IMG/VR virus record: IMGVR_UViG_3300017780_000923
Coordinates: 1 to 39,761 of that record
Strand: one strand, 5' to 3'
DNA length: 39,761 bases
Source: a virus
Lineage: Duplodnaviria > Caudoviricetes
Part shown: piece after piece, positions 7,417 through 38,744 of the stretch
Numbering within the stretch: position 1 is the stretch's first letter
How the letters are laid out: every line of letters begins with the position of its first letter
The notes under the pieces: model-generated
What the model was told of the DNA's origin: nothing
Databases searched by the model: none
Seen by the model: the letters and a program-made list of their open reading frames with translations, nothing else
Translations under genes and position numbers: made by a program

Positions 7417-7754
7417 AAGGTAAATTTATGAAATATGCAATTATAATAAACGACAAAGTTAGTAGCATAGTAGAATCAAATTCTGCACTCATGGAAAATT
7501 GGGTAGAAGGAGAGTTAGCATCAATTGGTGATTCATATGATGGGGTAAATTTTACTAAACCGCCAATAGACATAAAGGCTTACGCAGAATATGAAAGAAA
7601 CATTAGAAACGCAAAATTAACCAATTCCGACTGGACTCAAGTTGTTGATAGCACAGCAGATAAAGCAGCATGGGCAACATACCGTCAGGCGTTGCGAGAT
7701 ATTACTAAACAAGATGGCTTTCCATTAGCAGTTGTACAACCAATTTCCCCATAA
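7410..7754 (+). CDS. tail fibre assembly chaperone-like protein
   Basis: RNAKLTNSDWTQ..D......W..YRQALRDI motif of phage tail assembly chaperones; true start may be ATG7428. Confidence 0.7.
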   Translation: MVKGKFMKYAIIINDKVSSIVESNSALMENWVEGELASIGDSYDGVNFTKPPIDIKAYAEYERNIRNAKLTNSDWTQVVDSTADKAAWATYRQALRDITKQDGFPLAVVQPISP

Positions 7755-7761
7755 GGACTAC

Positions 7762-8418
7762 ATGACGGATACTACAGAAGAAGTTAAGCCTGATTTTGAT
7801 GCGTACTATTATTTTCCATCACCAGTATATGTAGCAAAGAAGCCAGAATTTCTAGAAATAATAAATGAAGTATCAGAGGAAGCACTAAAAAAAATAACGC
7901 ATGATGTTGATGAAATATATCCAATGCACAACACAGACAATTATGCCGGTGATTCTCGTTTAGTTGATTTCTGTAACTGTTTATGGCAAAGCGGTTGGAG
8001 TATTTTAAACGGTCAAGGCTATCATATGAATAGCTTTAATGTGGTGGTTGATGCGGTATGGACGCAGGAACATTACAAGCACTCGTTAATGGAACAACAC
8101 GTTCACGGTGGTGGAAATCAGTTGGTAGGTTTCTACTTTTTAGAGACACCAGAAAATTGTTCAAGAGTAATGTTCCATGATCCACGAGGCGGCAAAGTCC
8201 AAATCAACCTACCAGAGACTGACATGAGCGTAGCTACGCCTGCATCTAACACGATTAACTTTCAGCCAGAGCCTGGGATGATGTTAATAAGTAACGCATG
8301 GCTACCACATTCATTTGGCAGACATGGTTCAGACAAACCGATTAAGTTTGTGCATTTTAATCTGAGTGTGCAGTACGCACCGCAAGTCTGTAATACTAAT
8401 GCGGCAGAAGTGGTTTGA
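7762..8418 (+). CDS. 2OG-Fe(II) oxygenase superfamily protein (TIGR02466-like)
   Basis: HVH...LVGFYFL...FHDPR...P.PG...I.NAWLPH...FNL pattern; AAGGA RBS before ATG7762. Confidence 0.75.
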   Translation: MTDTTEEVKPDFDAYYYFPSPVYVAKKPEFLEIINEVSEEALKKITHDVDEIYPMHNTDNYAGDSRLVDFCNCLWQSGWSILNGQGYHMNSFNVVVDAVWTQEHYKHSLMEQHVHGGGNQLVGFYFLETPENCSRVMFHDPRGGKVQINLPETDMSVATPASNTINFQPEPGMMLISNAWLPHSFGRHGSDKPIKFVHFNLSVQYAPQVCNTNAAEVV

Positions 8419-15855: not shown

Positions 15856-16010
15856 GCGAAAGTCTTATTGAAAGAAAATGTCAGTGTGGTGCTGCTATGA
15901 CGCAAGTGCTGACATATGAAACACCAGATAAACATCCAGTTAGATGTGGTTGGTTCTGTATTATTTGTAGAGCCTGGGTGAAAGCAGTATCACGAGAAAG
16001 GGTGGTATAA
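15852..16010 (+). CDS. small zinc-ribbon protein (52 aa)
   Basis: MSESLIERKCQCG...GWFCIIC; ATGA coupling. Confidence 0.5.
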   Translation: MSESLIERKCQCGAAMTQVLTYETPDKHPVRCGWFCIICRAWVKAVSRERVV

Positions 16011-16042
16011 AAAAAGCCCCGCAGCTTTTGGCATTGGGGCTT
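16009..16042 (-). terminator. Rho-independent terminator for a leftward (antisense) transcript
   Basis: AAGCCCC/GGGGCTT stem with an A-run on its left, i.e. a U-tail on the minus strand. Confidence 0.6.
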
Positions 16043-16069
16043 GACTCAGACCACACGGGAGCGTAGTGT
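16041..16069 (+). promoter_or_regulatory. sigma70-like promoter
   Basis: TTGACT-N17-TAGTGT. Confidence 0.5.
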
Positions 16070-16495
16070 GAGCGATGTCGGTTGGATTGTAGTCCATCGA
16101 TACTGAAGGTGGCTAAAGATCGACTTGCCGACAGCGGCATTATTACCGATCTCTCCCCCCGAAAGCAACCAGTATCGATCAACATAGTCCTATATCGTCC
16201 AGTGTTTTAATGCAATGACTGTAACTCAATTGTAATGTCTACAGGACTTTAAGCTGGATAGCAAAATGCACTCAGGACTTGAGGAGCGACTGTCAGAATC
16301 TAGCAAGTGATTCTGAGTAAACTGGGTTAAGCGGACACCAATCGAGAAGTTCGATGGGGTTAGGTGAGTTGACAGACTCTCAGGATGAGGAACTGTTCCA
16401 GCAATCAGTGTATTTTGGATCAATGCAGGCAGGTATTCTCTACTGTACTACTAGGCTAGGTGTCCCAAAGCTCCTCATAGAATACTGTGGTCTGA
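16046..16495 (+). ncRNA. candidate large structured non-coding RNA (~420-450 nt)
   Basis: No + strand ORF of 60 aa or more; more than ten 6-11 bp complementary pairs, several with G-U wobbles on the + strand (see findings). Confidence 0.55.
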
Positions 16496-16563
16496 AAAAA
16501 GTGATACAAGTACAAACTCATTAAAAAAAGACAGAGTTTGTTCCTACGATTTACGGGAGATAT

Positions 16564-17424
16564 ATGGCATGGTTGATAAGCAAAGCACTTTACGAGAAAT
16601 GGCACTCTTCGCTGGAGCGGGAGGAGGAATTCTCGGAGGACACCTGCTCGGATGGAAAACCGTCTGTGCAGTCGAATGGGATATCTACGCAGCTTGCGTA
16701 CTTGCAGCCAGACAGAATGACGGCATTCTCCCGTCTTTCCCGATATGGGATGACGTTCAAAGTTTTGACGGTACAAAGTGGAGAGGACTTGTTGACGTGG
16801 TTTCGGGAGGATTTCCTTGTCAGGACATATCCGCAGCAGGGTTGGGAGCAGGAATTGAAGGAAACAAATCCTCAATGTGGAAACACATGGCAAGGATTAT
16901 TGGCGAGGTTAGACCTAGATACGCATATGTGGAGAACAGCCCAATGCTCACTTTTCGAGGACTTGGAGTTGTCCTTGCAGACCTTTCCAAGCTGGGGTAT
17001 GACTGTAAATGGGGAATTATATCAGCAGCAAGTGTTGGCGCACCACACCTCAGAGAACGTATCTGGCTTAAAGCCGAACAACGAGAATTTTTTTCACACT
17101 CCAAACACAACGGGGATGGATGGAGGCAGCAACAGCCGCAGAGCATTAAAGAAACGTCTACAGATATGGCCCACACCAACTCAAAGGGATTACAAGGGAG
17201 GTTACAAAACGGAATCTTTAATAAGGAAGGACGGGAAAAGCAGGGCAATGGATGCGCTACCAAATGCAATATTGGGAGGGCTTGGGACGGAAACTCAAAA
17301 TGGTGGAACGCTGAACCCGATGTGGGTCGAGTGGCTCATGGGGTGGCCTGTAGGGTGGACAGACTTAAAGCGATTGGAAATGGACAAGTTTCATCAGTGG
17401 CAGCAACAGCATGGAGTATTTTAA
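16564..17424 (+). CDS. C5 methyltransferase beta-like polypeptide in the overlapping frame (motif IX/TRD-like)
   Basis: 286-aa open frame; WPTP repeat-type motif and LNPMWVEWLMGWPVGWT (motif IX-like); GGGAGA RBS; its TAA abuts the helicase ATG. Confidence 0.7.
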   Translation: MAWLISKALYEKWHSSLEREEEFSEDTCSDGKPSVQSNGISTQLAYLQPDRMTAFSRLSRYGMTFKVLTVQSGEDLLTWFREDFLVRTYPQQGWEQELKETNPQCGNTWQGLLARLDLDTHMWRTAQCSLFEDLELSLQTFPSWGMTVNGELYQQQVLAHHTSENVSGLKPNNENFFHTPNTTGMDGGSNSRRALKKRLQIWPTPTQRDYKGGYKTESLIRKDGKSRAMDALPNAILGGLGTETQNGGTLNPMWVEWLMGWPVGWTDLKRLEMDKFHQWQQQHGVF

Positions 17425-17435
17425 ATGGAACTTAG
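16569..17435 (+). CDS. DNA cytosine-C5 methyltransferase alpha-like polypeptide
   Basis: LFAGAGG (I), GGFPCQD (IV), ENS (VI), RERIW (VIII), LKAIGNG (X); no motif IX in this frame. Confidence 0.88.
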   Translation: MVDKQSTLREMALFAGAGGGILGGHLLGWKTVCAVEWDIYAACVLAARQNDGILPSFPIWDDVQSFDGTKWRGLVDVVSGGFPCQDISAAGLGAGIEGNKSSMWKHMARIIGEVRPRYAYVENSPMLTFRGLGVVLADLSKLGYDCKWGIISAASVGAPHLRERIWLKAEQREFFSHSKHNGDGWRQQQPQSIKETSTDMAHTNSKGLQGRLQNGIFNKEGREKQGNGCATKCNIGRAWDGNSKWWNAEPDVGRVAHGVACRVDRLKAIGNGQVSSVAATAWSILNGT

Positions 17436-18933
17436 ACCGCACCAGCAATTGGCAATTGACCAGATTAGACATTCACTAGCTACTGGACATAGAAGACCAC
17501 TGCTAGCTGCTCCCTGTAGCTTCGGTAAAACTCTGACTGCTGCCTATATCCTGCAACACGCTGCCGAGAAAGGTAACCGAGTAATATTCTTTGCTGATCG
17601 AATCAAGTTAATCAGCCAGACTTGTGACCAGTTTGACAAACTTGGATTGAAATATGGTGTGATTCAGGGTCAGCATGAGCAGACCGATCCATCCCAACTC
17701 ATCCAGATTGCCAGTGTTCAGACCATTGCCAGAAGACAGAAGATGCCTGAGTTCTCACTGGCTATCGTGGATGAATGTCACATCCAGGCTGAGATCGTCA
17801 AGAAGCTAATGGAAAGGTACGATAACGTACCCTTTATAGGGCTTTCTGCGACACCCTACAGCAAAGGGCTGGGTAGGTATTACGATGATCTCCTTGTCCC
17901 GATAACAGCCCAAGAACTGCTCGAAAAGGGCTATCTAGCACCCGTCCATTATTATGGTGGCAGTCATATCGACATGAGCAAGATCAAAATGAAGGCTATA
18001 TCAACTGGCGGTTCAGATTACGATCCCGATCAACTAGCAGAAGCCACAGAACAACAGCAAGAAAAGCTAACGGGTGACATAGTTCGGAACTGGTTATTGC
18101 ATGGTGAAGACAGTCAAACCATAGCGTTTAGTCCCAGCATTAGACACAGCCGGTACTTAGTCGATATGTTCAACAAGGCTGGCATTAGTGCTGTACATAT
18201 TGATGGCTACATGGACGAAAGATTAAGGCAAGTGCTATACAAAAAGCACAACGATGGTGAGTTTAAAATCTTGTCATGTAGCAAGTTATTGAACACTGGC
18301 TATGATGCTCCGAGCGTGAGATGCCTGATTGATTGCTATCCAACTAAATCAATAATTTCTTACCAGCAGAGAGCCGGTAGGATTATGCGCATCAACCCTG
18401 GCAAAGAGTACGCAATCTACCTTGACCATGCCAGTAATGTAGGAAGGTTTGGATTTGCAGAAGACATCGTAGCAACAATGCTTGACGATGGTGAAAAGAA
18501 ATTTGTTGAGCGAGATCAGGTTAAAGATACTAAAGAAAAGAAACAGCATACTTGCCCACAATGCTCCAAGATTATGTTAGGCATTCGATGTTCCTGCGGG
18601 TATGAATTCCCAATCAAGGAAAGACTCGAAACAGATTCGTCAACGCTTGTACAGCTTGCCAGTGCAAAAGCATACGCCCAGGCTGACAAATCTATGTGGT
18701 ACTCAGGACTACTGACTCATGCAAGAAATAAAGGGTACAGTGATGGCTGGGCTGCTCATAAGTACAAAAGTAAATACGGTGTATGGCCTCGTAGTCTAGA
18801 TTATATCAAGGTGGGTCAGATACCACTGGAAGTCAGCAATTGGATACTGTCTGAAAATATAAGATATGGACATCGAAACGATAAATGGAAAAAGCTGGAT
18901 AATTTAAATAGGATGCTTGACTATAATACATGA
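17425..18933 (+). CDS. SF2 DExH helicase with zinc finger
   Basis: LRPHQ, APCSFGKT, DECH, LSATP, TGYD.P, QRAGRIMR, CPQC...CSCG. Confidence 0.9.
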   Translation: MELRPHQQLAIDQIRHSLATGHRRPLLAAPCSFGKTLTAAYILQHAAEKGNRVIFFADRIKLISQTCDQFDKLGLKYGVIQGQHEQTDPSQLIQIASVQTIARRQKMPEFSLAIVDECHIQAEIVKKLMERYDNVPFIGLSATPYSKGLGRYYDDLLVPITAQELLEKGYLAPVHYYGGSHIDMSKIKMKAISTGGSDYDPDQLAEATEQQQEKLTGDIVRNWLLHGEDSQTIAFSPSIRHSRYLVDMFNKAGISAVHIDGYMDERLRQVLYKKHNDGEFKILSCSKLLNTGYDAPSVRCLIDCYPTKSIISYQQRAGRIMRINPGKEYAIYLDHASNVGRFGFAEDIVATMLDDGEKKFVERDQVKDTKEKKQHTCPQCSKIMLGIRCSCGYEFPIKERLETDSSTLVQLASAKAYAQADKSMWYSGLLTHARNKGYSDGWAAHKYKSKYGVWPRSLDYIKVGQIPLEVSNWILSENIRYGHRNDKWKKLDNLNRMLDYNT

Positions 18934-19182: not shown

Positions 19183-19517
19183 AAGATCCGATTCTTGAAA
19201 TCCTTTTAGATAATCTTGGTGAAGTAATCAGAGGGGATATGTTCGATCCCCAAGATAACATCTTGGACACAATTTGGTGGGAGTTGAGCAAAGACCACTC
19301 CTTTCATTATGATGCCACTTCTCAGAGTACAGAGTATTCTGGTTTAGTCAGGGATTACATGATCAAGATGACTCAACCACTACAGCACAGTTTAAACTAC
19401 TGTACTATTAAGTTGTACAGGTTGGCTGCATACTCAGTTGCAGAAAATTACGAGTCTGAGTGCTGGTTAGCTAGCAACGATACTCGAACGGATAACGATC
19501 CAGAGGATTACGGTTGA
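19179..19517 (+). CDS. hypothetical protein
   Basis: 112 aa, AGGAG RBS, ATGA coupling. Confidence 0.55.
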   Translation: MKDPILEILLDNLGEVIRGDMFDPQDNILDTIWWELSKDHSFHYDATSQSTEYSGLVRDYMIKMTQPLQHSLNYCTIKLYRLAAYSVAENYESECWLASNDTRTDNDPEDYG

Positions 19518-20149
19518 GCTTTGTTTGCCCCCTGCCACCGATTAAGGTACTCGTAAGAGCAGAGTACCTGTACGACCATCAGAAAGGGCATGGAAGCCTA
19601 GTCGATGGTGTATGGTGTTCAGTCAAGTCTATAAGGGGTGAAGCATTCAGATTTGAGACTTATCTACCTGAATTTGCAGCACTTTATGACAAACTTCCCA
19701 TTTCTGCATTCGTGTGGAAAACCTGTGAACAACCTCTCGATCTAGACATTCTGCAAATCTGGGATGCCCTGACATACCATGTTGAAGTAATCGAGAAGCC
19801 CTTGCTTAAAGGGTTACGATGCGAGTTCTATGGCAAAGACGGCAACAAGCACCCTGGTGAGTATATGTTTACTTTGGATGGTGCTAACCCTGATCCCAGA
19901 ATCCCTGACTTCGGGTTCTCCGAATCCCCAGACGAACACAAGAGTTACAACTTGCTAAAACTGGACAACGGTCAGTTCGCTTTGCAGCCAAATAATCGAG
20001 TGCTGTTCTTCGATAATGCACTGGCTCACAAAAAGCTGAAGATGCCTGACTTCAAAGTCTGTACTCATAAATATACAGTTGAGGACAAGGCCAAGTGGCG
20101 GCTAGGCAGCACCAGCACTGTAAATTATGACGATGCCAAAGATATTTAG
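19514..20149 (+). CDS. conserved phage hypothetical protein
   Basis: EYLYD...SVKSI.G.A..FE..L....A.YDKLPISAF...QPNNR, a pattern I recall from aquatic phages; function unknown. Confidence 0.65.
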   Translation: MSFVCPLPPIKVLVRAEYLYDHQKGHGSLVDGVWCSVKSIRGEAFRFETYLPEFAALYDKLPISAFVWKTCEQPLDLDILQIWDALTYHVEVIEKPLLKGLRCEFYGKDGNKHPGEYMFTLDGANPDPRIPDFGFSESPDEHKSYNLLKLDNGQFALQPNNRVLFFDNALAHKKLKMPDFKVCTHKYTVEDKAKWRLGSTSTVNYDDAKDI

Positions 20150-20160
20150 GAATTTCAAAA

Positions 20161-20234
20161 TGAGTTGAGCCTGGGTTTTACTTGATTTGGAAAATCAAAA
20201 TTTCATAATTTGAAATCTCAAAAAATTCTGGGGA
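20161..20234 (+). repeat. dispersed A-tract element, copy 2
   Basis: Degenerate match to 9901-9960. Confidence 0.55.
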
Positions 20235-20294
20235 ACTTTACTGTATATCAAAATGGTCAAAAAACATTGAAATTCTGCCATTTTCTGTGCATAC

Positions 20295-20343
20295 GTAAGT
20301 TAGTACTCACTAACAAGGCCTTGTAAGTAAGCACTAACTAACA
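20295..20343. repeat. two pseudo-palindromic 21-bp sites (GTAAGT.AG.ACT.ACTAACA)
   Basis: Copies at 20295-20315 and 20323-20343; third copy at 23865-23882. Confidence 0.55.
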
Positions 20344-20516
20344 TAATGTTAATTTTTTGTTAACGATAGCCAAGCACAACATGACAATTTATATAATGCT
20401 TTGGAATCGTTTTAATTTATGCCCTTTGGGATAGTATTGCTCAGTCTGTTATTTTGCCATGCAAGCGATCCAGTGAAGTATTATTGGCATATAAAAAAGC
20501 ATACCAACCAATAGCC

Positions 20517-20542
20517 AAAAAAAAGCCCCAATTAAGGGGCTT
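20517..20542 (-). terminator. Rho-independent terminator of the leftward early operon
   Basis: GCCCC-AATTAA-GGGGC hairpin with an A8 run on its left. Confidence 0.75.
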
Positions 20543-20546
20543 ATAT

Positions 20547-20681
20547 TCATCTTTCTAAATCTTCTGTTATTCTTGCCATTGCATAACAAATGTTGTCCCA
20601 TTCTTCATCGTTTTTTTCGATACCTTCTGGTATAACCTTTTCCCGATATTCTTCCAATGCTTCCCAAATGATATCTATCAT
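20547..20681 (-). CDS. small acidic hypothetical protein (44 aa)
   Basis: MIDIIWEALEEYREK...; ATGA-coupled and ends just before the terminator. Confidence 0.5.
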   Translation of the reverse strand: MIDIIWEALEEYREKVIPEGIEKNDEEWDNICYAMARITEDLER

Positions 20682-20989
20682 CGTGCAGACTCCCAACACC
20701 ATCCATCAATTTCGTAAAAAGTTACGCCAAACACTTCTATTGTTTCGCATCGGTACACTTCATCATTATCCTTCACAAAAACATCATCACCTACTATTGA
20801 GAGGACATTTTCAAAATGGGAGTCGCTTGCATATTCAGACTCCAACCATTCATTAATTTTTACTATTTCAGATATTGGGAATGAGGGCATCTGCCAACCA
20901 TTCCATCGTGTACCAGTAGTAATACCTTTAAACGATGGGCTATTTTCTACCCGAAAATTACTGATAAAAAGATCATTTTTCATTGTCAT
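20678..20989 (-). CDS. hypothetical protein, WNGW paralogue B
   Basis: RWNGWQ.P.FP.SEI...CETI...GVT.Y.IDGWCW. Confidence 0.65.
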   Translation of the reverse strand: MTMKNDLFISNFRVENSPSFKGITTGTRWNGWQMPSFPISEIVKINEWLESEYASDSHFENVLSIVGDDVFVKDNDEVYRCETIEVFGVTFYEIDGWCWESAR

Positions 20990-21302
20990 TCTCCGATGTT
21001 ATTACTTTGTCCCAACACCAACCATCAATAAAATAATGGGTAACTCCATTGTGTTGGATTGTCTCGCACTGGATGCACTCTTCTAAAGAATGGTAAAAGA
21101 CAGAGACAATATCACCTTGAATTATTATATCGTTTGCGTTTATTCCGTCTTCTATCCAATCTTGAATTGCTTTGATTTCTGACAATGGAAACCACGGAGT
21201 TTGCCAGCCATTCCACCTATCGTTGTTGGTTACGCCTTTAAACTCTTTGCCTTCATCTATGCAAAAAATTCCATTTTCAAAATTTCCGATTCTATGATTC
21301 AT
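20973..21302 (-). CDS. hypothetical protein, WNGW paralogue A
   Basis: Same motifs as the neighbouring gene. Confidence 0.65.
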   Translation of the reverse strand: MNHRIGNFENGIFCIDEGKEFKGVTNNDRWNGWQTPWFPLSEIKAIQDWIEDGINANDIIIQGDIVSVFYHSLEECIQCETIQHNGVTHYFIDGWCWDKVITSENDNEK

Positions 21303-21304
21303 AA

Positions 21305-21520
21305 TTACACCTTTAAATAGTTTTTAAGAAATGCTTTAGAATTTCCTACATTAGATAATTCAATTATTAAAACGGCAATTTCTGCAATGCAAGGATCGCC
21401 TAACAACCATGCTTCAAAATCTTCAGTTCTAGCCATTTCTAACGCTTCATTTGGCACTTTTATGCCAATGGCTTTCATTTCTGTTAACTCTTTAATAACT
21501 TCAAGATTTAGCTTGTTCAT
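21305..21520 (-). CDS. hypothetical protein
   Basis: AAGGTG RBS before ATG21520. Confidence 0.5.
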   Translation of the reverse strand: MNKLNLEVIKELTEMKAIGIKVPNEALEMARTEDFEAWLLGDPCIAEIAVLIIELSNVGNSKAFLKNYLKV

Positions 21521-21554
21521 AATTTCACCTTTAATTTTTTTTGGTAGGATCAGA

Positions 21555-21857
21555 TTAAAAATTTTGGACAAGGAAAGATTCAGTTTTGCCAACTGGAATT
21601 ACGGTAGTGCATGACTCTATATCTTCAATGCTGTAATTATTATCAGTATCACCGTTGTTATAAGCATCGTTGAATTCTTCCAAATCTGCATATTCTGTAT
21701 ACTCACAGCAAAGCTCTATAACATCTAAATCATAACCTTCATCAATTTCTTCTAACCACTCAAACAATGCGCACAATGCGTTATAACTGAATTGGTCTTT
21801 TCTGCCCATTGCTCTAAATGCGTCAATGAATTGTGATTGATTGATTGTCTGTATCAT
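21555..21857 (-). CDS. acidic conserved phage early protein
   Basis: F.DAF...GR..QFSY.AL.ALF.WLEE...LDVI.LCCEY.EY. Confidence 0.65.
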   Translation of the reverse strand: MIQTINQSQFIDAFRAMGRKDQFSYNALCALFEWLEEIDEGYDLDVIELCCEYTEYADLEEFNDAYNNGDTDNNYSIEDIESCTTVIPVGKTESFLVQNF

Positions 21858-21862
21858 TTTAA

Positions 21863-22144
21863 TTACTCCGCATAGTTAACAAAAAGGATTGTGTTTTGAC
21901 GATATGGTCTGAAGATGTAGCCATCACCATATGATTCAGTTACGCCTCGGACATTTGAGAGACCTACAGATGCTTTGGCATTTCTCATTACTGTGCGCTG
22001 ATAGGATTTAGGTTCGACAGTACCATTGCCATTGTTGCCAGCAAAATGATGCCATTCTGGTACTGTAATGCTCGATCGTTTTACCCAACAATAGTTAGCT
22101 TCACCGCCAAAAGTATCTGTCAGCTCAACATTAAATGTGTTCAT
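21863..22144 (-). CDS. hypothetical protein
   Basis: ELTDTFGGEANYCWV motif. Confidence 0.6.
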   Translation of the reverse strand: MNTFNVELTDTFGGEANYCWVKRSSITVPEWHHFAGNNGNGTVEPKSYQRTVMRNAKASVGLSNVRGVTESYGDGYIFRPYRQNTILFVNYAE

Positions 22145-22223
22145 AAGTAATCAACCATATAAATAATAACAAAAGCAAAAAAGACTGCTATTAATAAAAG
22201 ACCGCAAAATTCTTGTAAATGTT

Positions 22224-22424
22224 TCATGGCATCACCTCACAAGTAGCAATTACAAAATTTTCCGTACCATTTATTAATCGATGGTCATAATCTGTAGATA
22301 TATAGTTATTAGAAGTAAAAATAATGTCACCAACATTTACTAGTCGGCATCTTTCGCCTTCTTTAGTGCGCACAAGATCATTAGATTGATAGTAATGATC
22401 TGCTATTAGTTTGATAGATTTCAT
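22224..22424 (-). CDS. hypothetical protein
   Basis: Coupled within the leftward operon. Confidence 0.45.
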   Translation of the reverse strand: MKSIKLIADHYYQSNDLVRTKEGERCRLVNVGDIIFTSNNYISTDYDHRLINGTENFVIATCEVMP

Positions 22425-22600
22425 ATTGTGATCTCTTGTTGTTTAACTTGAATTGAATAACCTAATGCCTTGATTGAATCTAAAGCCCGATTAGTAAATG
22501 TTTTAGTGCCAGCTAGATCAGCCAAAATTTTAGATTTGGCACAAACTGGATAAACACTGCGATTTCCGTAAACGCTTTTGATTTCAACTATGATTTCCAT
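22421..22600 (-). CDS. hypothetical protein
   Basis: MEIIVEIKSVYGN..YPVC..SK..A.LAGTKT; GGGGA RBS supports ATG22600. Confidence 0.6.
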   Translation of the reverse strand: MEIIVEIKSVYGNRSVYPVCAKSKILADLAGTKTFTNRALDSIKALGYSIQVKQQEITI

Positions 22601-22673
22601 TGTTATTCCCCCAGTAGTATCCATGCGCCAAATAGAATAATTAGCCCAACAAATAAGATAAAAAGTAGATGGT

Positions 22674-22829
22674 TCATAGTTTGAACCCAAAAGCTTTAAG
22701 ATAGGTTTGTTCTACAGGTGTCAACATACAAACAGAAAATGGATGTTTGTATATATAAGCTTGTAAACGAACTCTGTTTTTATCTGATTTTGATATGATG
22801 AAGGCAGTTAATAGTTTGTTCATGTTCAT
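22674..22829 (-). CDS. hypothetical protein (51 aa)
   Basis: ATGA-coupled; below the ORF-track cutoff. Confidence 0.45.
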   Translation of the reverse strand: MNMNKLLTAFIISKSDKNRVRLQAYIYKHPFSVCMLTPVEQTYLKAFGFKL

Positions 22830-22984
22830 ACCCCATTTAACAAAAATGGTGTGAAAAATGTTGCTACTGCTAAAATAGCTAGCCCAACAATACCTCTAAT
22901 GCTTTCGGGTAAATTGCCGAAACACATATTGTATAAATTCCAACCTAAAATGATAAAAACTATTGAGATGATTGCTATGTTCAT
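22826..22984 (-). CDS. 2TM membrane protein (52 aa), first gene of the leftward operon
   Basis: GAGG RBS; two hydrophobic stretches. Confidence 0.5.
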   Translation of the reverse strand: MNIAIISIVFIILGWNLYNMCFGNLPESIRGIVGLAILAVATFFTPFLLNGV

Positions 22985-23042
22985 GTTGTATGCCTCTATT
23001 GGTGTTACTAGTAGTTGAATGAATTGCTGTATTACGGAATCT

Positions 23043-23071
23043 AAAGTAATTCATTTAATAACATAATGCAA
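23043..23071 (-). promoter_or_regulatory. leftward early promoter
   Basis: TTGCAT-N17-TACTTT on the minus strand with an AT-rich upstream region. Confidence 0.5.
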
Positions 23072-23099
23072 TACATATATGAAATATATTTGTAATTAT

Positions 23100-23127
23100 T
23101 TGCAATTAGGTAAAAAGTGTATATAAT
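23100..23127 (+). promoter_or_regulatory. rightward promoter towards terS
   Basis: TTGCAA-N16-TATAAT. Confidence 0.45.
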
Positions 23128-23199
23128 TCAGCGTATTAGATAGAATTTTGCTATAGTTTTTTGATGGATTAGAATGCAAAGCAGAATATATTTATGATG

Positions 23200-23287
23200 G
23201 ATTACCAGATATCCAGCATTGATTACCAGATAGCAGATATCCAGCATTGATCTCACTGGTAGCAGTAGGCAAGTAGGCAAGTAGGCA
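23200..23287. repeat. short tandem repeats
   Basis: CAGATATCCAGCATTGAT x2 (23206, 23234), GATTACCAGATA x2 and AGTAGGCA x3 (23264-23287). Confidence 0.75.
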
Positions 23288-23332
23288 TAAGAGCGCATAG
23301 AATCGCAATAGAGCGTAGAGAGAGGTTGGACA

Positions 23333-23845
23333 ATGGCAGATAGCACTGATAACAAACCCATAGTTAAGAAAGTAACTGGCGGCTCACAATATGTCCCAAC
23401 TGGTATGCCAGCGGGTAGACCTGAGAAGTGGACACAAGAACTAGAAGACACAGTACTTGATCTACTATCAGAGAAATCACTTGTTGGTACTTGTAAGATA
23501 GTAGGGATAACACCTAGAACTGTATATGCTTGGATTGAAAGCAAGGAAGGATTCTTGACTAAATACTCACGTGCGTGCGAGGAAAGGGCTAGTTATTGTG
23601 CTGATGCGATATTGGAAGCTTCCTATGACTTACTCAATCCAGACTCTATCCTTGATGCTAACAAAAGCAGAGTAGGCATAGATGGGCTTAAATGGTCGGC
23701 AGCCCGCTTGTTTCCTAAGAAGTATAGCGATAAGCACCTACTTGAAGTATCTAGCACTGTTAACCATACCAACCTCTCTGATGATGATTTGAGCAGAAGG
23801 CTGCTAGAGTTAAGGACTGCCCACGAAATAGCAAGCAAAACCTAG
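23333..23845 (+). CDS. terS: terminase small subunit
   Basis: GRP.KWT.E...C...GI..RTVY.W......F...Y.RA.E......D, Sf6-like HTH terS; KW...RLFPKKY.D. Confidence 0.8.
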   Translation: MADSTDNKPIVKKVTGGSQYVPTGMPAGRPEKWTQELEDTVLDLLSEKSLVGTCKIVGITPRTVYAWIESKEGFLTKYSRACEERASYCADAILEASYDLLNPDSILDANKSRVGIDGLKWSAARLFPKKYSDKHLLEVSSTVNHTNLSDDDLSRRLLELRTAHEIASKT

Positions 23846-24040
23846 CATTTACAAGGCCTAGCGTGTTAGTAAGCACTCACTATCTATACACCATGCATGG
23901 ATGTTCAATGGTATCAATAGTTAACAATGCATTAACATTCATTAACGTTAAACGTTAACAATTCGTTAACGCCAGGATTGACCTATGACTGGTAGGGGGG
24001 GGTACGACTTCAATATTGATGATCGTTGATCCCCCCACTT

Positions 24041-24093
24041 CTATATAGCGCAATTTTCTACAACTTTTCCCTATATAGCGCAATTTTCTACAA
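24041..24093. repeat. 23-bp direct repeat x2 (CTATATAGCGCAATTTTCTACAA), 30-bp period, between G8 and C6 tracts
   Basis: Exact copies at 24041-24063 and 24071-24093. Confidence 0.85.
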
Positions 24094-24312
24094 ACCTACC
24101 CCCCTAAAATACCCCAGAATGCCTAAAAAATTTTTCGGAGGGCTAATTTTCAGCAATAGATTTAAAATCGTAATGTATAAATTTAAAATCAACAATAGAA
24201 GCCTCGGACGAAGACAATCTATGACTTTAAAATCAACAAGCTACCCTCTTGGATTCTCATTGGATTGTTAACAAGGAGTGATTAACTGTATGATGTTCCA
24301 CATGAAACATAG

Positions 24313-25785
24313 ATGACGAGAGTGTTAAGCATGAATCGACAGCAGAAGCTAGAGTTAGCGTCTTTGTTAGAAGAACAGACTAGACGCTTGAATCAAGCCA
24401 AGTTTATGCGTAAGTATTCCACGTTGTATGAGTGGCAGAAGAGATTTATATCCGCTACAAAGGAATGCCGTATTGCTGGGTTGATGGCTGCTAACCAGGT
24501 AGGTAAATCTCAAACAGGTAGAGTGTTGGATTGTGCGCATCTGACGGGTGAGTACCCTGAAGATTGGGAAGGGTATAAGTTTAGTAAAGCTCCGTTATGT
24601 TGGTTGTTAGGATACTCTGGTGAGAAGACTAGGGATTTGTTACAGAAACCTATGTTTGGTGATTTGAGGGACAGTAAGTTTTTAGGTGGCCTAATCCCTG
24701 TTGACAAGATTATTGACTATAGGGCTATGGCAGGAACATCGGGTGCTTGCAGAGAGATCAGGGTAAAACATAAGTCTGGAGGTGTATCGGTCTGTCAGTT
24801 CTGGTCTTACTCACAAGGACAACACGCTTTGATGGGTGACGTTGTTGATTGGTATCACATTGACGAAGAACCTGAAGACCAAGAAATCTTCCCTCAAGTT
24901 TTAACAAGGACGTTGAATGGGGACTTAGGACAGGGAGGTAGAGGTATTATCACGTTTACCCCTGAGAACGGAAAGACTAGCCTTGTCCAACAGTTGATGG
25001 ATTCTGACGGTTCAGGTATGTGTTTACAGACCGCTACTTGGTCTGACGCTCCTCATCTTACTGAAGAGATGAAACGAGACATTCTAAAGGCTTATCCCCC
25101 TTACCAAAGAGACATGAGAAGTCGAGGAGTTCCCTTGATGGGTGCTGGGCTTATCTTTGAGCATGGTGAGGAAGATATAACCTGTAAGAGATTTGATATT
25201 CCTGAACACTGGTATTTGATTAATGGGATGGACTTTGGCTGGGATCATCCACAGGCTCATGTTCAATTAGCGATTGATCCTGACAGTGGAGCTATTTACG
25301 TTGTACAAGCCTGGAAGAAATCTAAGAAACAACCTTTTGAAGCCTGGCAATCGGTCAGAGGTTGGGCTAAAGATGTCCCTACTGCTTGGCCTCACGATGG
25401 ACTAATGCACGAAAAGGGTTCTGCTAAACAACAAAAGGACTATTATGAGGAAGCAGGTTGGTCTATGCTAGACGAACATTCGACTTGGCCTGAAGGTGGT
25501 AATGGCGTTGAGGCAGGATTAATGAAGCTCAACGAACTCATGTCCACTGGTCTTTTTAAGATATTTGCTGATTTGCACGAGTTAGTTGCAGAGGTAAGAG
25601 AATACCATCGGAGGCAAATGCCCAATGGTACTTCTGCTATTGTGAAAGTGAAAGACGATTTGATTGATGCCGTAAGAGGAGCTTTTATGATGGCTCGTTA
25701 CGCAGAGCAGAAACGGTATATTAGCGAACCTGTTAATTACGAAGAAGAGAATTATCAAGCACCTACTGGTGCGATGGGATATTAA
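24313..25785 (+). CDS. terL: terminase large subunit (P22 gp2-like)
   Basis: AANQVGKS Walker A, HIDEEP Walker B, TFTPENG, GMDFGWDHP nuclease motif, DDLIDAVR. Confidence 0.93.
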   Translation: MTRVLSMNRQQKLELASLLEEQTRRLNQAKFMRKYSTLYEWQKRFISATKECRIAGLMAANQVGKSQTGRVLDCAHLTGEYPEDWEGYKFSKAPLCWLLGYSGEKTRDLLQKPMFGDLRDSKFLGGLIPVDKIIDYRAMAGTSGACREIRVKHKSGGVSVCQFWSYSQGQHALMGDVVDWYHIDEEPEDQEIFPQVLTRTLNGDLGQGGRGIITFTPENGKTSLVQQLMDSDGSGMCLQTATWSDAPHLTEEMKRDILKAYPPYQRDMRSRGVPLMGAGLIFEHGEEDITCKRFDIPEHWYLINGMDFGWDHPQAHVQLAIDPDSGAIYVVQAWKKSKKQPFEAWQSVRGWAKDVPTAWPHDGLMHEKGSAKQQKDYYEEAGWSMLDEHSTWPEGGNGVEAGLMKLNELMSTGLFKIFADLHELVAEVREYHRRQMPNGTSAIVKVKDDLIDAVRGAFMMARYAEQKRYISEPVNYEEENYQAPTGAMGY

Positions 25786-25786
25786 T

Positions 25787-28075
25787 ATGACGGTTAAGAT
25801 TCTAGTCGAATACATAAGCAAGATGAATATTGCTGATGACCTTGATGAAGATATTCTCAGGGCTATTGGATCAAGAGTTAAACGTCAGTACGAAGAAGAC
25901 CTCACCTCAATGACTGATTGGTTGGATGCTGTGAAGAACGGTATCGACCTGATGAGACAAGAATACCATACCCGATCAACGCCCTGGGAAGGGGCTTCCA
26001 ATTACAAAGACCCTATCCTGACTGAAGCATCGTTACGCTTTGGTGATAAAGCTACCCTTGAGTTATTGAAAAATAAAAACTTATTGGCTGTACAAGCTAT
26101 CGGTAGAGACAAGGATGGTAAAAAGAAAGAACGCATGAAGCGTGTTTCTGAAGTAATGAACTATCAGATTAACTATGGGATGGGTGGCTGGAGACGAGAT
26201 CAATCTCGATTATTCTATCAACTGCCTAACGTAGGAACAGCGTTTAAGAAAGTAGTCTTTGATTTACTTGAAGATAAGTGTGAGTCCATTGTAATTACTT
26301 ACCCTGACTTCGTTGTTAACCAAGCTACCAAGTCTATGTCTGACTGTCGTTCTTTCTCTCAGGTTATGCAGTTCTCCCGTAATGCTATAGAAGAGCGAGT
26401 TCGTTCGGGGAAATGGCTGGATATTGAAATGTTTGAAGATGAGTCTTCTGAATACGAAGAAGGTGTAGACCGTAAAGGCGATAAATTCTCCAACGAAGAA
26501 CAGAAGGTAATTAACAGTTTTGACAATCCAGAGAAGTTTATTGAGCAGCAATGCTTTTATGACTTAGACGGTGATGGGTATGAAGAACCTTATGTGATAA
26601 CGGTTCACGACCAATCAGGCAAGGTAGTCAGGATTGTTGCTCGGTTTGATGAAAACTCCATCATGGTTAAGTATAACGAAAAGGTTATGTCATTGCCTAA
26701 AGCGATGAGACTTACCGAACAAGACGTAGTGAAAGGGTTTGGTGGTGATGGAATGATGAGCTTTTTAGGGTTAGCAAAACCTAAAATCAATAAAGAAGAC
26801 TTTGAAATCGTTAGAGTAATCCCTTTCCAAAACGTAACAAAGTATGGATTTATACCAGCCCCTGATGGCACTTTCCTTGATCTGGGCTATGCCCATGTTC
26901 TCGGGGCAATGACCCAAGCAATTAACGCTACCACTAATCAACTGACTGACCGAGGTACTTTGAACAATGTAGGCGGTGGAATACTGTCTAAAGAGTTCAG
27001 GAAAGAAAACGGAGTCACTAGGCTGAAGATGGGTCAGTACGTCAAGACGGATGTTCCTGCTGAGAAATTGGCAAAGGGTATCTTTCCAAATCCTACCCAA
27101 GAACCTAGCCAGGCATTGCTGGCTCTTAACCAGCAGATGAGCAATCGAGCGCAAACATTCTTGGCGGTAGCTGACTTGTCTGGTCAGATTCAAGCAAGCA
27201 CAGCTCCTACTACTGCGTTGGCTATTATTCAGGAAGGAATGACAGCCACTAATGCGCTGTTTAAACGGATTATTGACTCACAGACTGAAGAATTCCAAGT
27301 GCTGTACAGGATTAACAAAACTACTTTTAATCCTGATTTGTATAAAGATATTCTGGACGATCCAGAAGCTGACCCTATTGCTGACTTTGATTCTGATATG
27401 GTTGAGATTATACCCTCTGCTAGTGCTGAGATGAGCAGTCGTGTACAGCGAATTCAAACTGCTGCACTTGAGCTAGAACAAGTCCCTATGGTTCTCCAGT
27501 CTGGAGGTAATCCTGTTCCTATTATCAAAGGATTCTTTGAGGCTATCGGGTCTGACTTGTTAGACCAAATATACCCAGAAGAAAGCTCCATGAGTCCAAA
27601 AGACAAAGAAGCTATCCAGAAAATGACTGCTGAGAAAGAAAAAACCAATCAGTTAGCACAACTTCAGACTGAAATACTTAAACGTGAGCAAGACCGTTTG
27701 GATGAAGACTCTAAAGCTAAACGCAAAGAGATCGAGTCTAGGATTCTTACTGCTAAAGTCACTGATATTGAAAGCCTGGCTAGAGCTACCAAGTTGGCTG
27801 AAGAAGCAGAAACTGAATCTACCCAGAATAAGATTGACAAGTATTCTGGAATAATAGATATGGCTGAAAAACAGATAATGAACTATGGCATTAATCCTAT
27901 GGAGAGGATTCAACCTATAGCTCCTCCTCCACCACCAATGCCTCCTCCAATGCCGCCACCAATGCAAGCTCCACCAATGCCACCACAGATGCAGCCACAA
28001 GCACCAGGCACAGTGCCTGATAATTTACAAGGGTTGATGAATCAACAAGCAATGCCAGAAGTACAGAACCCATAG
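25787..28075 (+). CDS. portal protein
   Basis: PWEGASN..DP.L.EA..., DLDGDGYEEPY; follows terL; coiled-coil and Pro/Met-rich tail. Confidence 0.85.
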   Translation: MTVKILVEYISKMNIADDLDEDILRAIGSRVKRQYEEDLTSMTDWLDAVKNGIDLMRQEYHTRSTPWEGASNYKDPILTEASLRFGDKATLELLKNKNLLAVQAIGRDKDGKKKERMKRVSEVMNYQINYGMGGWRRDQSRLFYQLPNVGTAFKKVVFDLLEDKCESIVITYPDFVVNQATKSMSDCRSFSQVMQFSRNAIEERVRSGKWLDIEMFEDESSEYEEGVDRKGDKFSNEEQKVINSFDNPEKFIEQQCFYDLDGDGYEEPYVITVHDQSGKVVRIVARFDENSIMVKYNEKVMSLPKAMRLTEQDVVKGFGGDGMMSFLGLAKPKINKEDFEIVRVIPFQNVTKYGFIPAPDGTFLDLGYAHVLGAMTQAINATTNQLTDRGTLNNVGGGILSKEFRKENGVTRLKMGQYVKTDVPAEKLAKGIFPNPTQEPSQALLALNQQMSNRAQTFLAVADLSGQIQASTAPTTALAIIQEGMTATNALFKRIIDSQTEEFQVLYRINKTTFNPDLYKDILDDPEADPIADFDSDMVEIIPSASAEMSSRVQRIQTAALELEQVPMVLQSGGNPVPIIKGFFEAIGSDLLDQIYPEESSMSPKDKEAIQKMTAEKEKTNQLAQLQTEILKREQDRLDEDSKAKRKEIESRILTAKVTDIESLARATKLAEEAETESTQNKIDKYSGIIDMAEKQIMNYGINPMERIQPIAPPPPPMPPPMPPPMQAPPMPPQMQPQAPGTVPDNLQGLMNQQAMPEVQNP

Positions 28076-28085
28076 CGGGTAGATA

Positions 28086-28113
28086 ATCTGCAAATGCAGA
28101 TCTGCAAATGCAG
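28086..28113. repeat. 14-bp tandem repeat ATCTGCAAATGCAG x2
   Basis: Exact tandem copies upstream of the RBS of the gene at 28130. Confidence 0.75.
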
Positions 28114-28129
28114 AATAGAGGAGCAATAG

Positions 28130-28399
28130 ATGCTAGAGATGCTATTTAGTTTAATTCCTGAACGTACCCTCATTACACGAGACCACTACAACAAGTGGAA
28201 ACGTGACCCCGTTACCGTCCGACTGCATAACGATCTCATATTAGCGTTACTTGAGCAGATACAGGACGATTTGCCAGAATCAGTAGATAGCTCCATTCCA
28301 CTAGCGCATCAAAGAGAAGGTGCTAGGAAAATGATAGATATTCTATTGTATTGGCAACCAGTAGAGGTTCGTAACGAGGAACTAAGCAATGAAGATTAA
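28130..28399 (+). CDS. hypothetical protein
   Basis: GAGGAG RBS; W..DPVT motif. Confidence 0.6.
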   Translation: MLEMLFSLIPERTLITRDHYNKWKRDPVTVRLHNDLILALLEQIQDDLPESVDSSIPLAHQREGARKMIDILLYWQPVEVRNEELSNED

Positions 28400-28721
28400 A
28401 CCAGTAGGATTCTACGTTTTAGTAGAAACCCAGTTAGTAGAAGAAAAAACGGCTGGCGGTATTTTATTAACTAAAGATACCGCACAGAAAGAACAATCTG
28501 TTACTGAAGAAGGCATTTTACGGGCTGTTGGCCCTACTGCTTATTCAGGATGGGAAGGTTGTAAGGATGAATCAAAACCAGCCCATGTCCAATGGGGAGT
28601 AAACATTGGAGATAGGGTAGAGTTTAGAAAATTTGAAGGCAAGAAATCGGTTGTTAAAGATTATGACAACTTCCGTTACATTCCTGATACACACATCATT
28701 GGAGTCATAGACAATGGCTGA
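28389..28721 (+). CDS. groES: GroES-like co-chaperonin
   Basis: IKPVG..VLV.....EEKTAGGILL...G....VGP...V.IGDRV.F....G...I.D..I.GVI. Confidence 0.85.
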   Translation: MKIKPVGFYVLVETQLVEEKTAGGILLTKDTAQKEQSVTEEGILRAVGPTAYSGWEGCKDESKPAHVQWGVNIGDRVEFRKFEGKKSVVKDYDNFRYIPDTHIIGVIDNG

Positions 28722-29463
28722 TTCAGAAGAAATTGATTTGAAAGCACTTGCTCAAGAACCAGAGGAAAAGGAAGAAGTAAAGCTCCCTAAAACATACGCT
28801 ACCCGCCAAGAAGATAAAGCAAGAAGCGGTGGATGGGTATCTGAGGAAGAATGGAATGAAGCCGGTAAAGCAGCAGAAGATTGGATATCTGCGGAGGCTT
28901 TTAACATTCGTGGAGAGTTTATTGGTAAGTTAAAAAGCAAAGACAGGGAAATTGAGGAGAGACTTTCTGGTGTTAACAAGATTGTTGACGCTCAGAAGGC
29001 AGTAATCAGGGATTTTCGTAAAGCTGCTATTGAAAATGGTGATGTTAAGGCTGTTGAAGGCTACGACAAGCAGATTGCCAACCTCAGTATGCAAGCTCCT
29101 GCACGAAATACCGATCTGGATGACTGGAATACCCGTAATGCGTGGATATTTGAGGAATCTCCTAAGTCTATCTATGCAAGACACGAATATCAGAAGGCTA
29201 AAATGCAAGGAATGGACGATAACACTGCTTTATCTATGGTAGATGGCAAATTAAAGGCTAGTTATCCTGATAATACCCCTAAAAGAAGTGTTCCTGACAC
29301 TGAAAAAGGGCATGGAAACAAGGGCTTTAAGACACCTTCTAGGGCATTAAGTATGGCTGATTTAACCAATGATGAGCTTGCTTTGAAGGCTGCATTGCCA
29401 GATGCTTGGAAGAACGATAAAGAATTCCTGAAGGCTGTATCTGACTCTAGGGGGTCAAAATGA
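28714..29463 (+). CDS. putative scaffolding protein
   Basis: Acidic coiled coil with GW..EEEW and W..RN.W motifs, between portal and capsid. Confidence 0.55.
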   Translation: MADSEEIDLKALAQEPEEKEEVKLPKTYATRQEDKARSGGWVSEEEWNEAGKAAEDWISAEAFNIRGEFIGKLKSKDREIEERLSGVNKIVDAQKAVIRDFRKAAIENGDVKAVEGYDKQIANLSMQAPARNTDLDDWNTRNAWIFEESPKSIYARHEYQKAKMQGMDDNTALSMVDGKLKASYPDNTPKRSVPDTEKGHGNKGFKTPSRALSMADLTNDELALKAALPDAWKNDKEFLKAVSDSRGSK

Positions 29464-29945
29464 GAGGACGTAGAACTTCCGCATCCAATGTAAGTGCTGA
29501 GATGTCTGCTGTAATGGGTATTGAGTCTGGTGATGCCAGAAATCCTAACGAACCTGCTAAACGGGTCAGAAGGGGTATGCAGCAAGGGCTAAACCTTGAA
29601 GTACCTAATTATGAATTTGATTTGGATCACTTTTATTACCGCTGGTTTTCAGAGGTAAGTAATCGTCCAGGTCGTATTACTTCTGCACAGAATGCTGATT
29701 ATGAAATGTGTGTAGATTTCTCTGGTGGGAGTATAACCAGACCTTCTGGCAGCAGTACCATGTACCTGATGAGGCTTAAGCGTGAATTCAGGACAGATGA
29801 CCAAAATGCCAAGAAGGAAAAGAACAAAAAAATGCTTGGTGAGCAAACTAAACTCGCAGTCAATGAATATGCACCGACTAGAACAAGAGCCGAAGGAAGC
29901 GAATCATCTTTAGATCGAGTTGAGTCAGATAATCCTTATAGTTGA
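29460..29945 (+). CDS. hypothetical head-region protein
   Basis: Y.YRW.......GRI.......Y...LM motif; synteny. Confidence 0.55.
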   Translation: MRGRRTSASNVSAEMSAVMGIESGDARNPNEPAKRVRRGMQQGLNLEVPNYEFDLDHFYYRWFSEVSNRPGRITSAQNADYEMCVDFSGGSITRPSGSSTMYLMRLKREFRTDDQNAKKEKNKKMLGEQTKLAVNEYAPTRTRAEGSESSLDRVESDNPYS

Positions 29946-30090
29946 CAATGACTTTGCTGCTACTGTAATCTAGTAGCAGCAAATTGCTTTTAGCAATTTA
30001 TAGTTTAGGCATAGAGCCAAATTTAGAGATTTTCCTCACTAAACGCTTAGAAAAAGCGTCAGTTAGTTGAGACAACTGCCCGTAAGGGTA
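29942..30090 (+). promoter_or_regulatory. promoter with overlapping 12-bp inverted repeat and hairpin-rich leader of the capsid operon
   Basis: TTGACA-N18-TAATCT; TTTGCTGCTACT/AGTAGCAGCAAA; several further hairpins, one with a GTAA tetraloop. Confidence 0.5.
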
Positions 30091-30120
30091 TTTCTTTCAT
30101 TTAACTTACTGAGGTCTACA

Positions 30121-30675
30121 ATGGCTGGATTTAATTTTGTAGGTACTGAGGCACAGGGTGACATTACAGGGAAAAGTAAAACTTTCCATGTACTTGCATC
30201 TCACTCTGGCGTTCTCGGAATAGGTGACTTGGTCGTTCTGACCGGCACTTCTTTCACTGATGGTTATGCAGAGGTCGATATCGGCACTGCTAACATCGGT
30301 AACACTGGCGTAGTCACTGGCGTTCGTCCAACTTTTGCTGGCGAAGCTCTGTCTTACACTCACTTACCCGCATCTACTGCTGGTTACTTGACTGTAAACA
30401 CAGATGCTTTTGCTGTGTATGCTGTTGACGTGGCTAATGGCCCATTCACCGCTGTTGACGTTGGTCTTAACTGTCCCGCAGTAGTTACTGCTGGTACTGT
30501 TTCTGGCTCAATCTTTGTCAGCAACATGAAAGCCAACTTCACTGGTCGTGCTACTACAGCAACCCTTCCATTAACTATCGTCCGTCTGCTTGTAGGTTCT
30601 GATGGCGTACTTGGCTCACGAGCTATGGTACGAGTCAATGAAACCAACAGCAAACTGGGCGCAACTGGCATTTAA
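30121..30675 (+). CDS. capsid cement/decoration protein
   Basis: Small G/T/V-rich protein directly before the major capsid gene; GAGG RBS before ATG30121. Confidence 0.6.
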   Translation: MAGFNFVGTEAQGDITGKSKTFHVLASHSGVLGIGDLVVLTGTSFTDGYAEVDIGTANIGNTGVVTGVRPTFAGEALSYTHLPASTAGYLTVNTDAFAVYAVDVANGPFTAVDVGLNCPAVVTAGTVSGSIFVSNMKANFTGRATTATLPLTIVRLLVGSDGVLGSRAMVRVNETNSKLGATGI

Positions 30676-30686
30676 GGAGATAGACA

Positions 30687-31610: not shown

Positions 31611-31622
31611 TCCGTAATGACG

Positions 31623-31650
31623 TAGGGGGTGTAAAAGCCCCCTATGTTTC
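31623..31650 (+). terminator. probable terminator after the capsid gene
   Basis: TAGGGGG...CCCCCTA stem followed by a weak T-tail. Confidence 0.5.
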
Positions 31651-31697
31651 AACCTTGACATTTCTTAACAGACCCTACTGGGTTCAATGGTGAAAAT

Positions 31698-32657: not shown

Positions 32658-32668
32658 TAGTAACTATC

Positions 32669-32699
32669 GGGGGTAGGTAACACTACCCCCTTCTTTTTT
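32669..32699 (+). terminator. Rho-independent terminator
   Basis: GGGGTAG-GTAACA-CTACCCC followed by TTCTTTTTT. Confidence 0.75.
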
Positions 32700-32711
32700 A
32701 GCGGAGGCATC

Positions 32712-33652: not shown

Positions 33653-33655
33653 TTT

Positions 33656-34080: not shown

Positions 34081-34128
34081 TGGTAGTATGAAAAGTTAAA
34101 AATCATTAACAATGTCAAAAGGTGATTT

Positions 34129-34568: not shown

Positions 34569-34580
34569 TAAGGTGGACAG

Positions 34581-37628: not shown

Positions 37629-37635
37629 TCTGGGC

Positions 37636-38741: not shown

Positions 38742-38744
38742 GAC

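Follow-up and report, generated by a model that had tools for sequence, protein, structure and literature searches.

What occupies the gap at positions 16011-16563 of this phage genome, and how does a tailed phage with no named initiator gene start the replication of its DNA? The window, that is, the whole stretch of DNA analysed (39,761 nucleotides), is a 39.8-kb phage record rated complete. Its genes follow the order ERF, exonuclease, SSB, HTH, NinB-like (a label that rests on cluster assignment), NinG, small ORFs, the gap, C5 methylase and SF2 helicase, and no primase, polymerase, DnaB or initiator is named among the 62 annotated proteins. The initial annotation regarded the gap as one large, structured non-coding RNA. 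Its statement that no + strand ORF of at least 60 aa is present is borne out, one ORF of 56 aa being present; no tRNA or tmRNA is found, and the cumulative GC skew makes no turn at the element. The gene that follows the element in most carriers is the helicase:

17425-18933, + strand: SF2 helicase (PHROG 16; Pfam ResIII and Helicase_C), downstream partner in most carriers

Directly after the gap, positions 16564-17435 contain two long overlapping + strand frames, each with a methylase profile match, and the same pair of frames is present in L021 and L022 (L numbers denote loci of relatives). They likely represent a C5 methylase split between alternative frames, presumably in the manner of M.EcoHK31I. 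The window also encodes a GroES-like protein (28389-28721), a 2OG-Fe(II) oxygenase (7732-8418) and a ferredoxin-labelled product (19514-20149).

The sequence of the window alone carries a faint structural signal. The minimum free energy (MFE), which was to be compared with shuffles, has a z of -0.81 on the + strand and -2.23 on the - strand, values that are weak and uninformative as evidence. Watson-Crick helices of at least 7 bp number 9 in the gap and 5.35 in shuffles, 11 of 200 shuffles reaching 9; the single-sequence helices are barely above chance. All nine helices that had been proposed with coordinates are complementary at those positions, and the other arms listed are present too. Helices a (CAAAATGCACT/AGTGTATTTTG), b (TGAGGAGC/GCTCCTCA), h (TCAGAATC/GATTCTGA) and d (GGACACC/GGTGTCC) are intact in the three close relatives, among which a and h show compensatory changes, and ATCGATACTG/CAGTATCGAT (16096-105/16170-79) and the TGCCG hairpin are largely retained. 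Support in relatives is weak for GCGATGT/ATATCGT, GGATTGT/ATAGTCC and GCTGGA/TCCAGC. The pairing is mostly lost for AGATCG/CGATCT (2/6 pairs in L251 and in L007) and decays in L251 for GTATTCT/AGAATAC (3/7) and CTGTCA/TGACAG (4/6). The outer bracket TCAGACCACA/TGTGGTCTGA (16046-55/16486-95) keeps only 7/10 pairs in both informative relatives, and its 5' arm sits within the spacer of the promoter, before the predicted RNA start. Several 3' helices and their crossing thus survive from the single complex fold first drawn, whereas the bracket and several other helices are not conserved; the best-covarying helices (c, e, f and g) were absent from it, as were the antisense promoter and terminator.

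Covariation in homologues, set as a check on the RNA, is found. The family to which the 3' core (16237-16495) belongs comprises 71 distinct copies, found on contigs of viral, metagenome and MAG origin. These derive from 158 loci, collected as helicase-anchored loci and by pattern scans of viral, metagenome and genome contigs; chance pattern matches without other anchors (15 rows from two scans and 37 of 42 from another) were left out of the family. A single intact copy of the core occurs in 8 of the 9 carrier records searched. In record G005 a second copy (L274:960-1294) is degenerate and apparently interrupted, possibly a remnant of module replacement. The elements of the core are:

16237-16256, + strand: hairpin P1 (GTC/GAC) and small pseudoknot pk1 (CAG/CTG); 3/3 pairs, compensatory change in L236, L245 and L251
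16257-16495, + strand: conserved core, supported by covariation, with a conserved tail to 16495
16262-72 with 16407-17, + strand: helix a
16273-75 with 16290-92, + strand: hairpin i, whose loop is strand b
16280-87 with 16470-77, + strand: helix b
16293-300 with 16309-16, + strand: helix h
16319-22, + strand: AAAC
16322-25 with 16398-401, + strand: helix c
16333-39 with 16459-65, + strand: helix d
16366-69 with 16376-79, + strand: helix e
16371-75 with 16393-97, + strand: helix f
16379-82 with 16386-89, + strand: helix g

From 5' to 3' the order is P1/pk1, a5', hairpin i (loop b5'), h, AAAC, c5', d5', e (loop f5'), g, f3', c3', a3', d3', b3' and the tail. The pairs pk1/P1, b/i, b/a, d/c, d/a and e/f cross, and at least four helices cross in the core. 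The invariant unpaired bases are AAAC, G-GGA and GGU-UCCC-A.

The evidence for these helices comes from several alignments. A 42-sequence subset has a mean column identity of 46%. In the plain MAFFT alignment of this subset, to which no structure was fitted, corrected mutual information ranks highest three column pairs that follow one another in helix c and are 99-100% canonical. In an unfitted 39-sequence alignment, 90% of the cells of helices c, d, e, f and g pair, and the covariation of c-g is 0.47, compared with 0.16 when shuffled and at most 0.09 when slid. When all 71 sequences are fitted to the model, the paired share of the c-g cells is 93%, d and e lying outside the model. Compensatory double changes fall on 63 branches of a tree computed from the unpaired columns; in 500 null draws the mean is 2.9 and the maximum 11. 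Helix d is rewritten in three distant members, the P1 loop and its partner co-change across subfamilies, and the letters of helix b are replaced wholesale between subfamilies (GATGG/CCATC, AGACC/GGTCT, GATAC/GTATC, GAGAGC/GCTCTC, TGAGGAGC/GCTCCTCA), with at least 4 bp in all 69 members that have sufficient upstream DNA. For helices a and b the support rests on such lists of changed arms, because the mismatched-arm control is too permissive there (78% and 42% of mismatched pairs pass). An RNA of the + strand is favoured because G-U cells (119) far exceed A-C cells (20); a near-invariant G-U closes helix f. The model R1, whose training set includes the window, matches 16315-16495 at 92 bits. Comparative analysis indicates, then, a conserved, pseudoknot-rich RNA motif on the + strand, and the proposal of a large, pseudoknotted phage RNA is upheld by covariation, the G-U bias and the lack of an Rfam match. 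A frameshifted or hidden protein gene is rejected: no ORF is conserved across homologues, and indels of any size and the compensatory changes oppose it.

Upstream of the core lies a 5' module with a different organization:

16009-16042, - strand: terminator-like hairpin AAGCCCC/GGGGCTT with a U-run, predicted end of the antisense RNA; stem 7/7 in L236, L251 and L007
16041-16069, + strand: sigma-70-type promoter TTGACT-17-TAGTGT, predicted start about 16075-16077
16075-16500, + strand: predicted long RNA (RNA II-like), about 420 nt, from the promoter and the conserved 3' tail
16076-16198, + strand: 5' switch module, early hairpin TGTCGG/CCGACA (16076-81/16128-33) versus the longer helix ATCGATACTG/CAGTATCGAT
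16139-16168, - strand: convergent promoter TTGCTT-18-AATAAT, predicted start near 16133
16011-16133, - strand: predicted antisense RNA (RNA I-like), about 120 nt, three stem-loops (MFE), from the promoter and terminator

The sense promoter had been named beforehand and is located at 16041-16069. Within 360 nt upstream of the core no other + strand site scores as well; 1 of 20 shuffles equals it, and a strict consensus scan does not list it. A matching site occurs at the same place in the main subfamily, with a varied spacer. The terminator scan, which admits loops of up to 8 nt, does not list the terminator-like hairpin, and most relatives have an A-run hairpin like it. At the position of the convergent promoter, L007 and L251 have TTGC-17-GATAAT. 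The best sense and antisense sites are 40-110 nt apart in 30 of 63 members, the other 33 being without the convergent pattern. The support for the antisense site is its fixed position with varied spacers, since most individual sites do not exceed shuffles. The MFE fold (MFE only) shifts from the early hairpin to the longer helix as the transcript grows; this length-dependent refolding is obtained in 7/7 examples with the RNA core and not in one initiator example, and the early hairpin keeps 5-6 of its 6 pairs in relatives.

A typical carrier with upstream DNA has the A-run hairpin (minus-strand terminator), a sigma-70-type promoter in or beside it, a hairpin of 60-70 nt and a back-pointing promoter. 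One subfamily is without the 5' module, its promoter standing directly before the core, and the cores of L158, L266, L235 and L241 lie directly 3' of an ORF, without the antisense module. L007 has 140 of the 166 nt of the window's 5' module yet a core of type 2, and L038 combines the 5' module of L030 with core type 2. The sequence comparison indicates that 5' modules move between core types. Rather than part of a single nested fold, as first described, the 5' domain appears to be a swappable switch, probably controlled by the antisense RNA.

A hint of transcription comes from 151-nt contigs with 0-1 differences in three lake metatranscriptomes (16086-16236, 16218-16368, 16280-16429, 16460-16610 and 16624-16774), and it is a hint only, the depth being 2-3 and DNA possibly present. 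Two identical pieces of run X1 fall inside the element and none of full length in 19800-39761; much of the capsid region is covered by run X3. Both runs were chosen by the element region, and gaps in their coverage carry no weight.

The position of the core among relatives bears on its function. Of 64 loci with the same helicase, 13 have this core (10 by profile, L037 and L041 weakly, L057 by eye), 11 an unrelated second core, 13 a third core and 4 a DUF1376 initiator; the records are related, so these counts overstate independent events. Two of these four alternatives never stand together at one of the 64 loci. The remaining 23 loci, unexplained by a recognised core or DUF1376, are in many cases short, six of them having 5 kb upstream (L009, L010, L014, L015, L018 and L022). 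In L293 and L294, DUF1376 is followed by arrays of AAACCCA/TGGGTT inverted repeats and an AT tract, and no core is present; repeat arrays and an AT tract after an initiator gene are the usual look of a protein-started origin. In two cultured phages, Vibrio phage 1.233.A and Pseudoalteromonas HS5, the same helicase is flanked upstream by a small replication protein with direct repeats and downstream by a Toprim primase.

Other structured stretches occupy the same slot. The second core (about 340 nt; L007:4605-4943, L027, L038, L040, L042, L044-L047, L049 and L062) has 5' modules in common with the window's family and gives no Rfam match in the five loci scanned. The third core (about 260 nt) ends in a conserved GGGAAAA run, stands behind a similar 5' hairpin about 0.8-1.4 kb before the helicase (L033-L035, L043, L050-L053, L055 and L058-L061) and has no plasmid match. 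In the cultured Pseudomonas phage PS-1 (L291:3381-3995), an unannotated GC-rich gap of 614 nt precedes the same helicase and a full primase is kept; the three core profiles give no match in this gap. Further structured non-coding stretches occur in L020 (740 nt before the helicase), L063 (1.1-2.0 kb before the helicase) and L191:2700-2900. The 5' units of L020 and L191, which we take by eye to resemble C4-type antisense modules, give no Rfam match. Cultured carriers are not found: when the window and three relatives are compared by blastn with 50,697 phage records, a single 40-nt chance match results, and R1 has no match in four cultured helicase relatives. Bacterial genomes give one match, on a 4.3-kb contig of a Spongiibacteraceae MAG that may be mis-binned, and none in 150 other genomes of its order.

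The replication proteins complete this picture. In 13 IMG/VR records (G numbers), Toprim_3, HTH_36, Phage_rep_O and RepL are each found in 0/13, and DnaB_C in 0/13 over the cut-off; an integrase is likewise found in 0/13. DUF1376 is present in one, G011, the sole record without a recognised core. A Toprim primase is missing from G011 too, so that loss of the primase does not by itself set the RNA carriers apart. The Prim-Pol search gives 0/13, but the intended control phage is also unmatched, and AEP-type primases may be present. ORFs directly after the core, chosen by eye, match only the C-terminal parts of initiator profiles, as in L238 (phrog_9327, 172-242 of 276), L158 (O-like phrog_678, 219-290 of 346) and, similarly, L259 and L239, and stand-alone DnaT domains exceed the cut-off in 5 of 13 hand-picked proteins. 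L266 and L263 give no such match, and none is shown by L147, L244 and L264. In RNA-less kin, the DUF1376 ORF covers the other end of these profiles, matching their N-terminal part (phrog_9327, 4-112). Half-initiators are frequent, though not universal, directly behind the core in carriers without the helicase. In many uncultured relatives (L023-L065) the gene after the helicase encodes a stand-alone CHC2 zinc-finger protein of 123-151 aa, with a conserved C-terminal helix and a match to the primase N-terminus only. The annotation of the window names neither a half-initiator nor a zinc-finger gene.

An RNA-started origin of phage DNA replication is the simplest account of the element because of the slot, the mutual exclusion, the half-initiators and the convergent promoters. 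This putative function is given a probability of roughly 0.6, and among the roles first suggested (ribozyme-like, scaffold or replication primer) the replication primer best suits the gene context. Transcription from 16041-16069 would yield the RNA of about 420 nt. The core would fold during synthesis and hold the 3' end as an R-loop, the transcript thereby opening the DNA. Host RNase H and Pol I would then make and extend the primer, as in ColE1 (mechanism from the available part of PMC5043065). The fork machinery may be brought in by the phage SF2 helicase or, in other carriers, by the stand-alone DnaT or O-type C-terminal domain. The antisense RNA of about 120 nt would bind the 5' hairpin, shift the fold and limit initiation. 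All four steps, the R-loop, cleavage by RNase H, extension by Pol I and repression by the antisense RNA, are inferred.

A bolder version, which is offered tentatively and is rather doubtful, makes the RNA itself the initiator. In place of that half of an O-type protein which binds the origin, the knotted RNA would keep the origin open through pairing of its loop b and strand d with the displaced DNA strand, and the leftover C-terminal half or the helicase would dock on it; at least three unrelated folds would have been recruited and swapped like replicon cassettes.

Less probable still is a leader acting in cis, riboswitch-like or an attenuator, which would adjust expression of the helicase operon and would itself be regulated by the antisense RNA, in the way of plasmid rep leaders or C4-type immunity units. 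A start codon follows the 3' anchor of the core at a median of 46 nt, a same-strand helicase lies downstream in 38 of the 49 members with at least 2 kb of downstream DNA, L191 has a C4-like 5' unit (a likeness seen by eye) and a similar 5' hairpin precedes the initiator gene in DUF1376 phages. The downstream genes are, however, unrelated across members (helicase, methylases, DnaT domains, unknowns), and directly after the core a new promoter-like site appears in 15 of the 71. No conserved terminator or anti-SD platform is seen, strand b being SD-like only in the window's own group, and such a leader would leave the exclusion of initiator genes unexplained.

No likelier than the leader is a stand-alone trans-acting RNA (ribozyme, scaffold or protein sponge), merely co-transcribed with early genes. 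Invariant unpaired bases and several pseudoknots, as the core has, typically mark RNAs that form a tertiary active site, the antisense module is missing in some carriers, and the core of L264 precedes terminase genes. Against such an RNA, the core occupies the origin slot, where two unrelated cores or initiator genes can take its place, Rfam yields no ribozyme match, and no partner protein is common to all carriers. A fold that acts as single-stranded DNA, signalling priming or primosome assembly on the displaced strand, with transcription only exposing it, would suit the stand-alone DnaT domains after the core, the motifs ARRPOF, GEBRO and PAGEV, which could act as ssDNA (available part of PMC5737381), and helix d, with 1 G-U-type cell among 425 cells with letters, but is very improbable, the G-U excess and the closing pair of f suiting RNA better and the convergent promoters implying an RNA target. 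A retron or RT-associated ncRNA was considered and rejected: no reverse transcriptase is found among the 62 window proteins, and the enclosing bracket is not conserved.

Rfam 15 has no entry for this covarying RNA family, and RNA-initiated replication in phages is its most likely role. If this is true, it would be a third RNA-initiated family, unrelated to ColE1 and MRB, in tailed phages, with interchangeable cores and halved initiator proteins, and it would explain how replication starts in many aquatic phages without a recognisable primase or initiator. The core would offer a compact pseudoknot for structure work and the 500-bp unit would be directly testable as a minimal replicon. Even without the origin reading, the RNA family stays new to Rfam 15.

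As regards known RNAs, cmscan with Rfam 15, whose families include ribozymes, group I/II introns, ROOL, GOLLD, ARRPOF, PAGEV and C4, gives 0 matches at the gathering threshold in the window and 19 loci; at E up to 10 for the window and up to 5 for 15 relatives, only unrelated sub-threshold matches appear. The motif was not found described in the literature, where the candidate lists of PMC10690425 and PMC5737381 were covered in part and a prior listing is possible. Blastn against 72,556 plasmids gives no match.

The closest parallel in arrangement is ColE1/pMB1. There, as here, a long structured transcript with alternative 5' folds is overlapped at its 5' end by a three-hairpin antisense RNA of about 110-120 nt (predicted here), and an initiator protein is likewise not found in the window by annotation and six family searches, covering those families only. 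The predicted sizes and arrangement resemble those in the available part of PMC5043065, and the predicted antisense promoter and terminator over the 5' end are positionally conserved by sequence comparison. In contrast to ColE1, the window's core is shorter, has more crossing helices and occurs in tailed phages beside a helicase or half-initiator. RF00106 (RNA I) has no match in the window, the ColE1 control matching at 73.8 bits, and nhmmer profiles of all three cores have no match in ColE1 RNA II. Word-level likeness to RNA II was tested and is not supported by the R1 search, which with filters off scores at best 2.4 bits inside RNA II (ColE1 1-2000).

The MRB (marine RNA-based) plasmids of Vibrionaceae have, in the available part of PMC3035462, a 68-nt RNA I and an RNA II of about 465 nt, and ColE1 and MRB were in 2010 the only RNA-initiated plasmid replicon families known. 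The same source, to the extent available, describes a Rep-less unit of about 500 bp, a small antisense RNA ending at an A/T-flanked hairpin and a swappable 5' module, all similar to what is predicted here; one member has only the RNA I module in common, and in pES213 the 5' module sits on an unrelated 3' part. The window differs in its predicted antisense RNA of about 120 nt with three stem-loops instead of 68 nt with two, and in its pseudoknotted RNA II core, which that part of PMC3035462 does not describe, the likeness being judged by description. Three Vibrio plasmids of unconfirmed origin type, searched in part, give no R1 match. By the tests run, the element appears to belong to neither ColE1 nor MRB.

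ARRPOF, GEBRO and PAGEV, structured motifs that occur with plasmids, measure 220-350 nt and are linked to replication regions, ARRPOF lying in one able to replicate without rep (available part of PMC5737381); the window and 15 relatives differ from all three in having no Rfam match. The lambda O or YdaU (DUF1376) initiator with iterons shares the genomic slot, and its C-terminal halves are kept behind the RNA in several carriers. Unlike that type, the carriers are without the N-terminal origin-binding domain and the repeats, and the RNA stands there instead.
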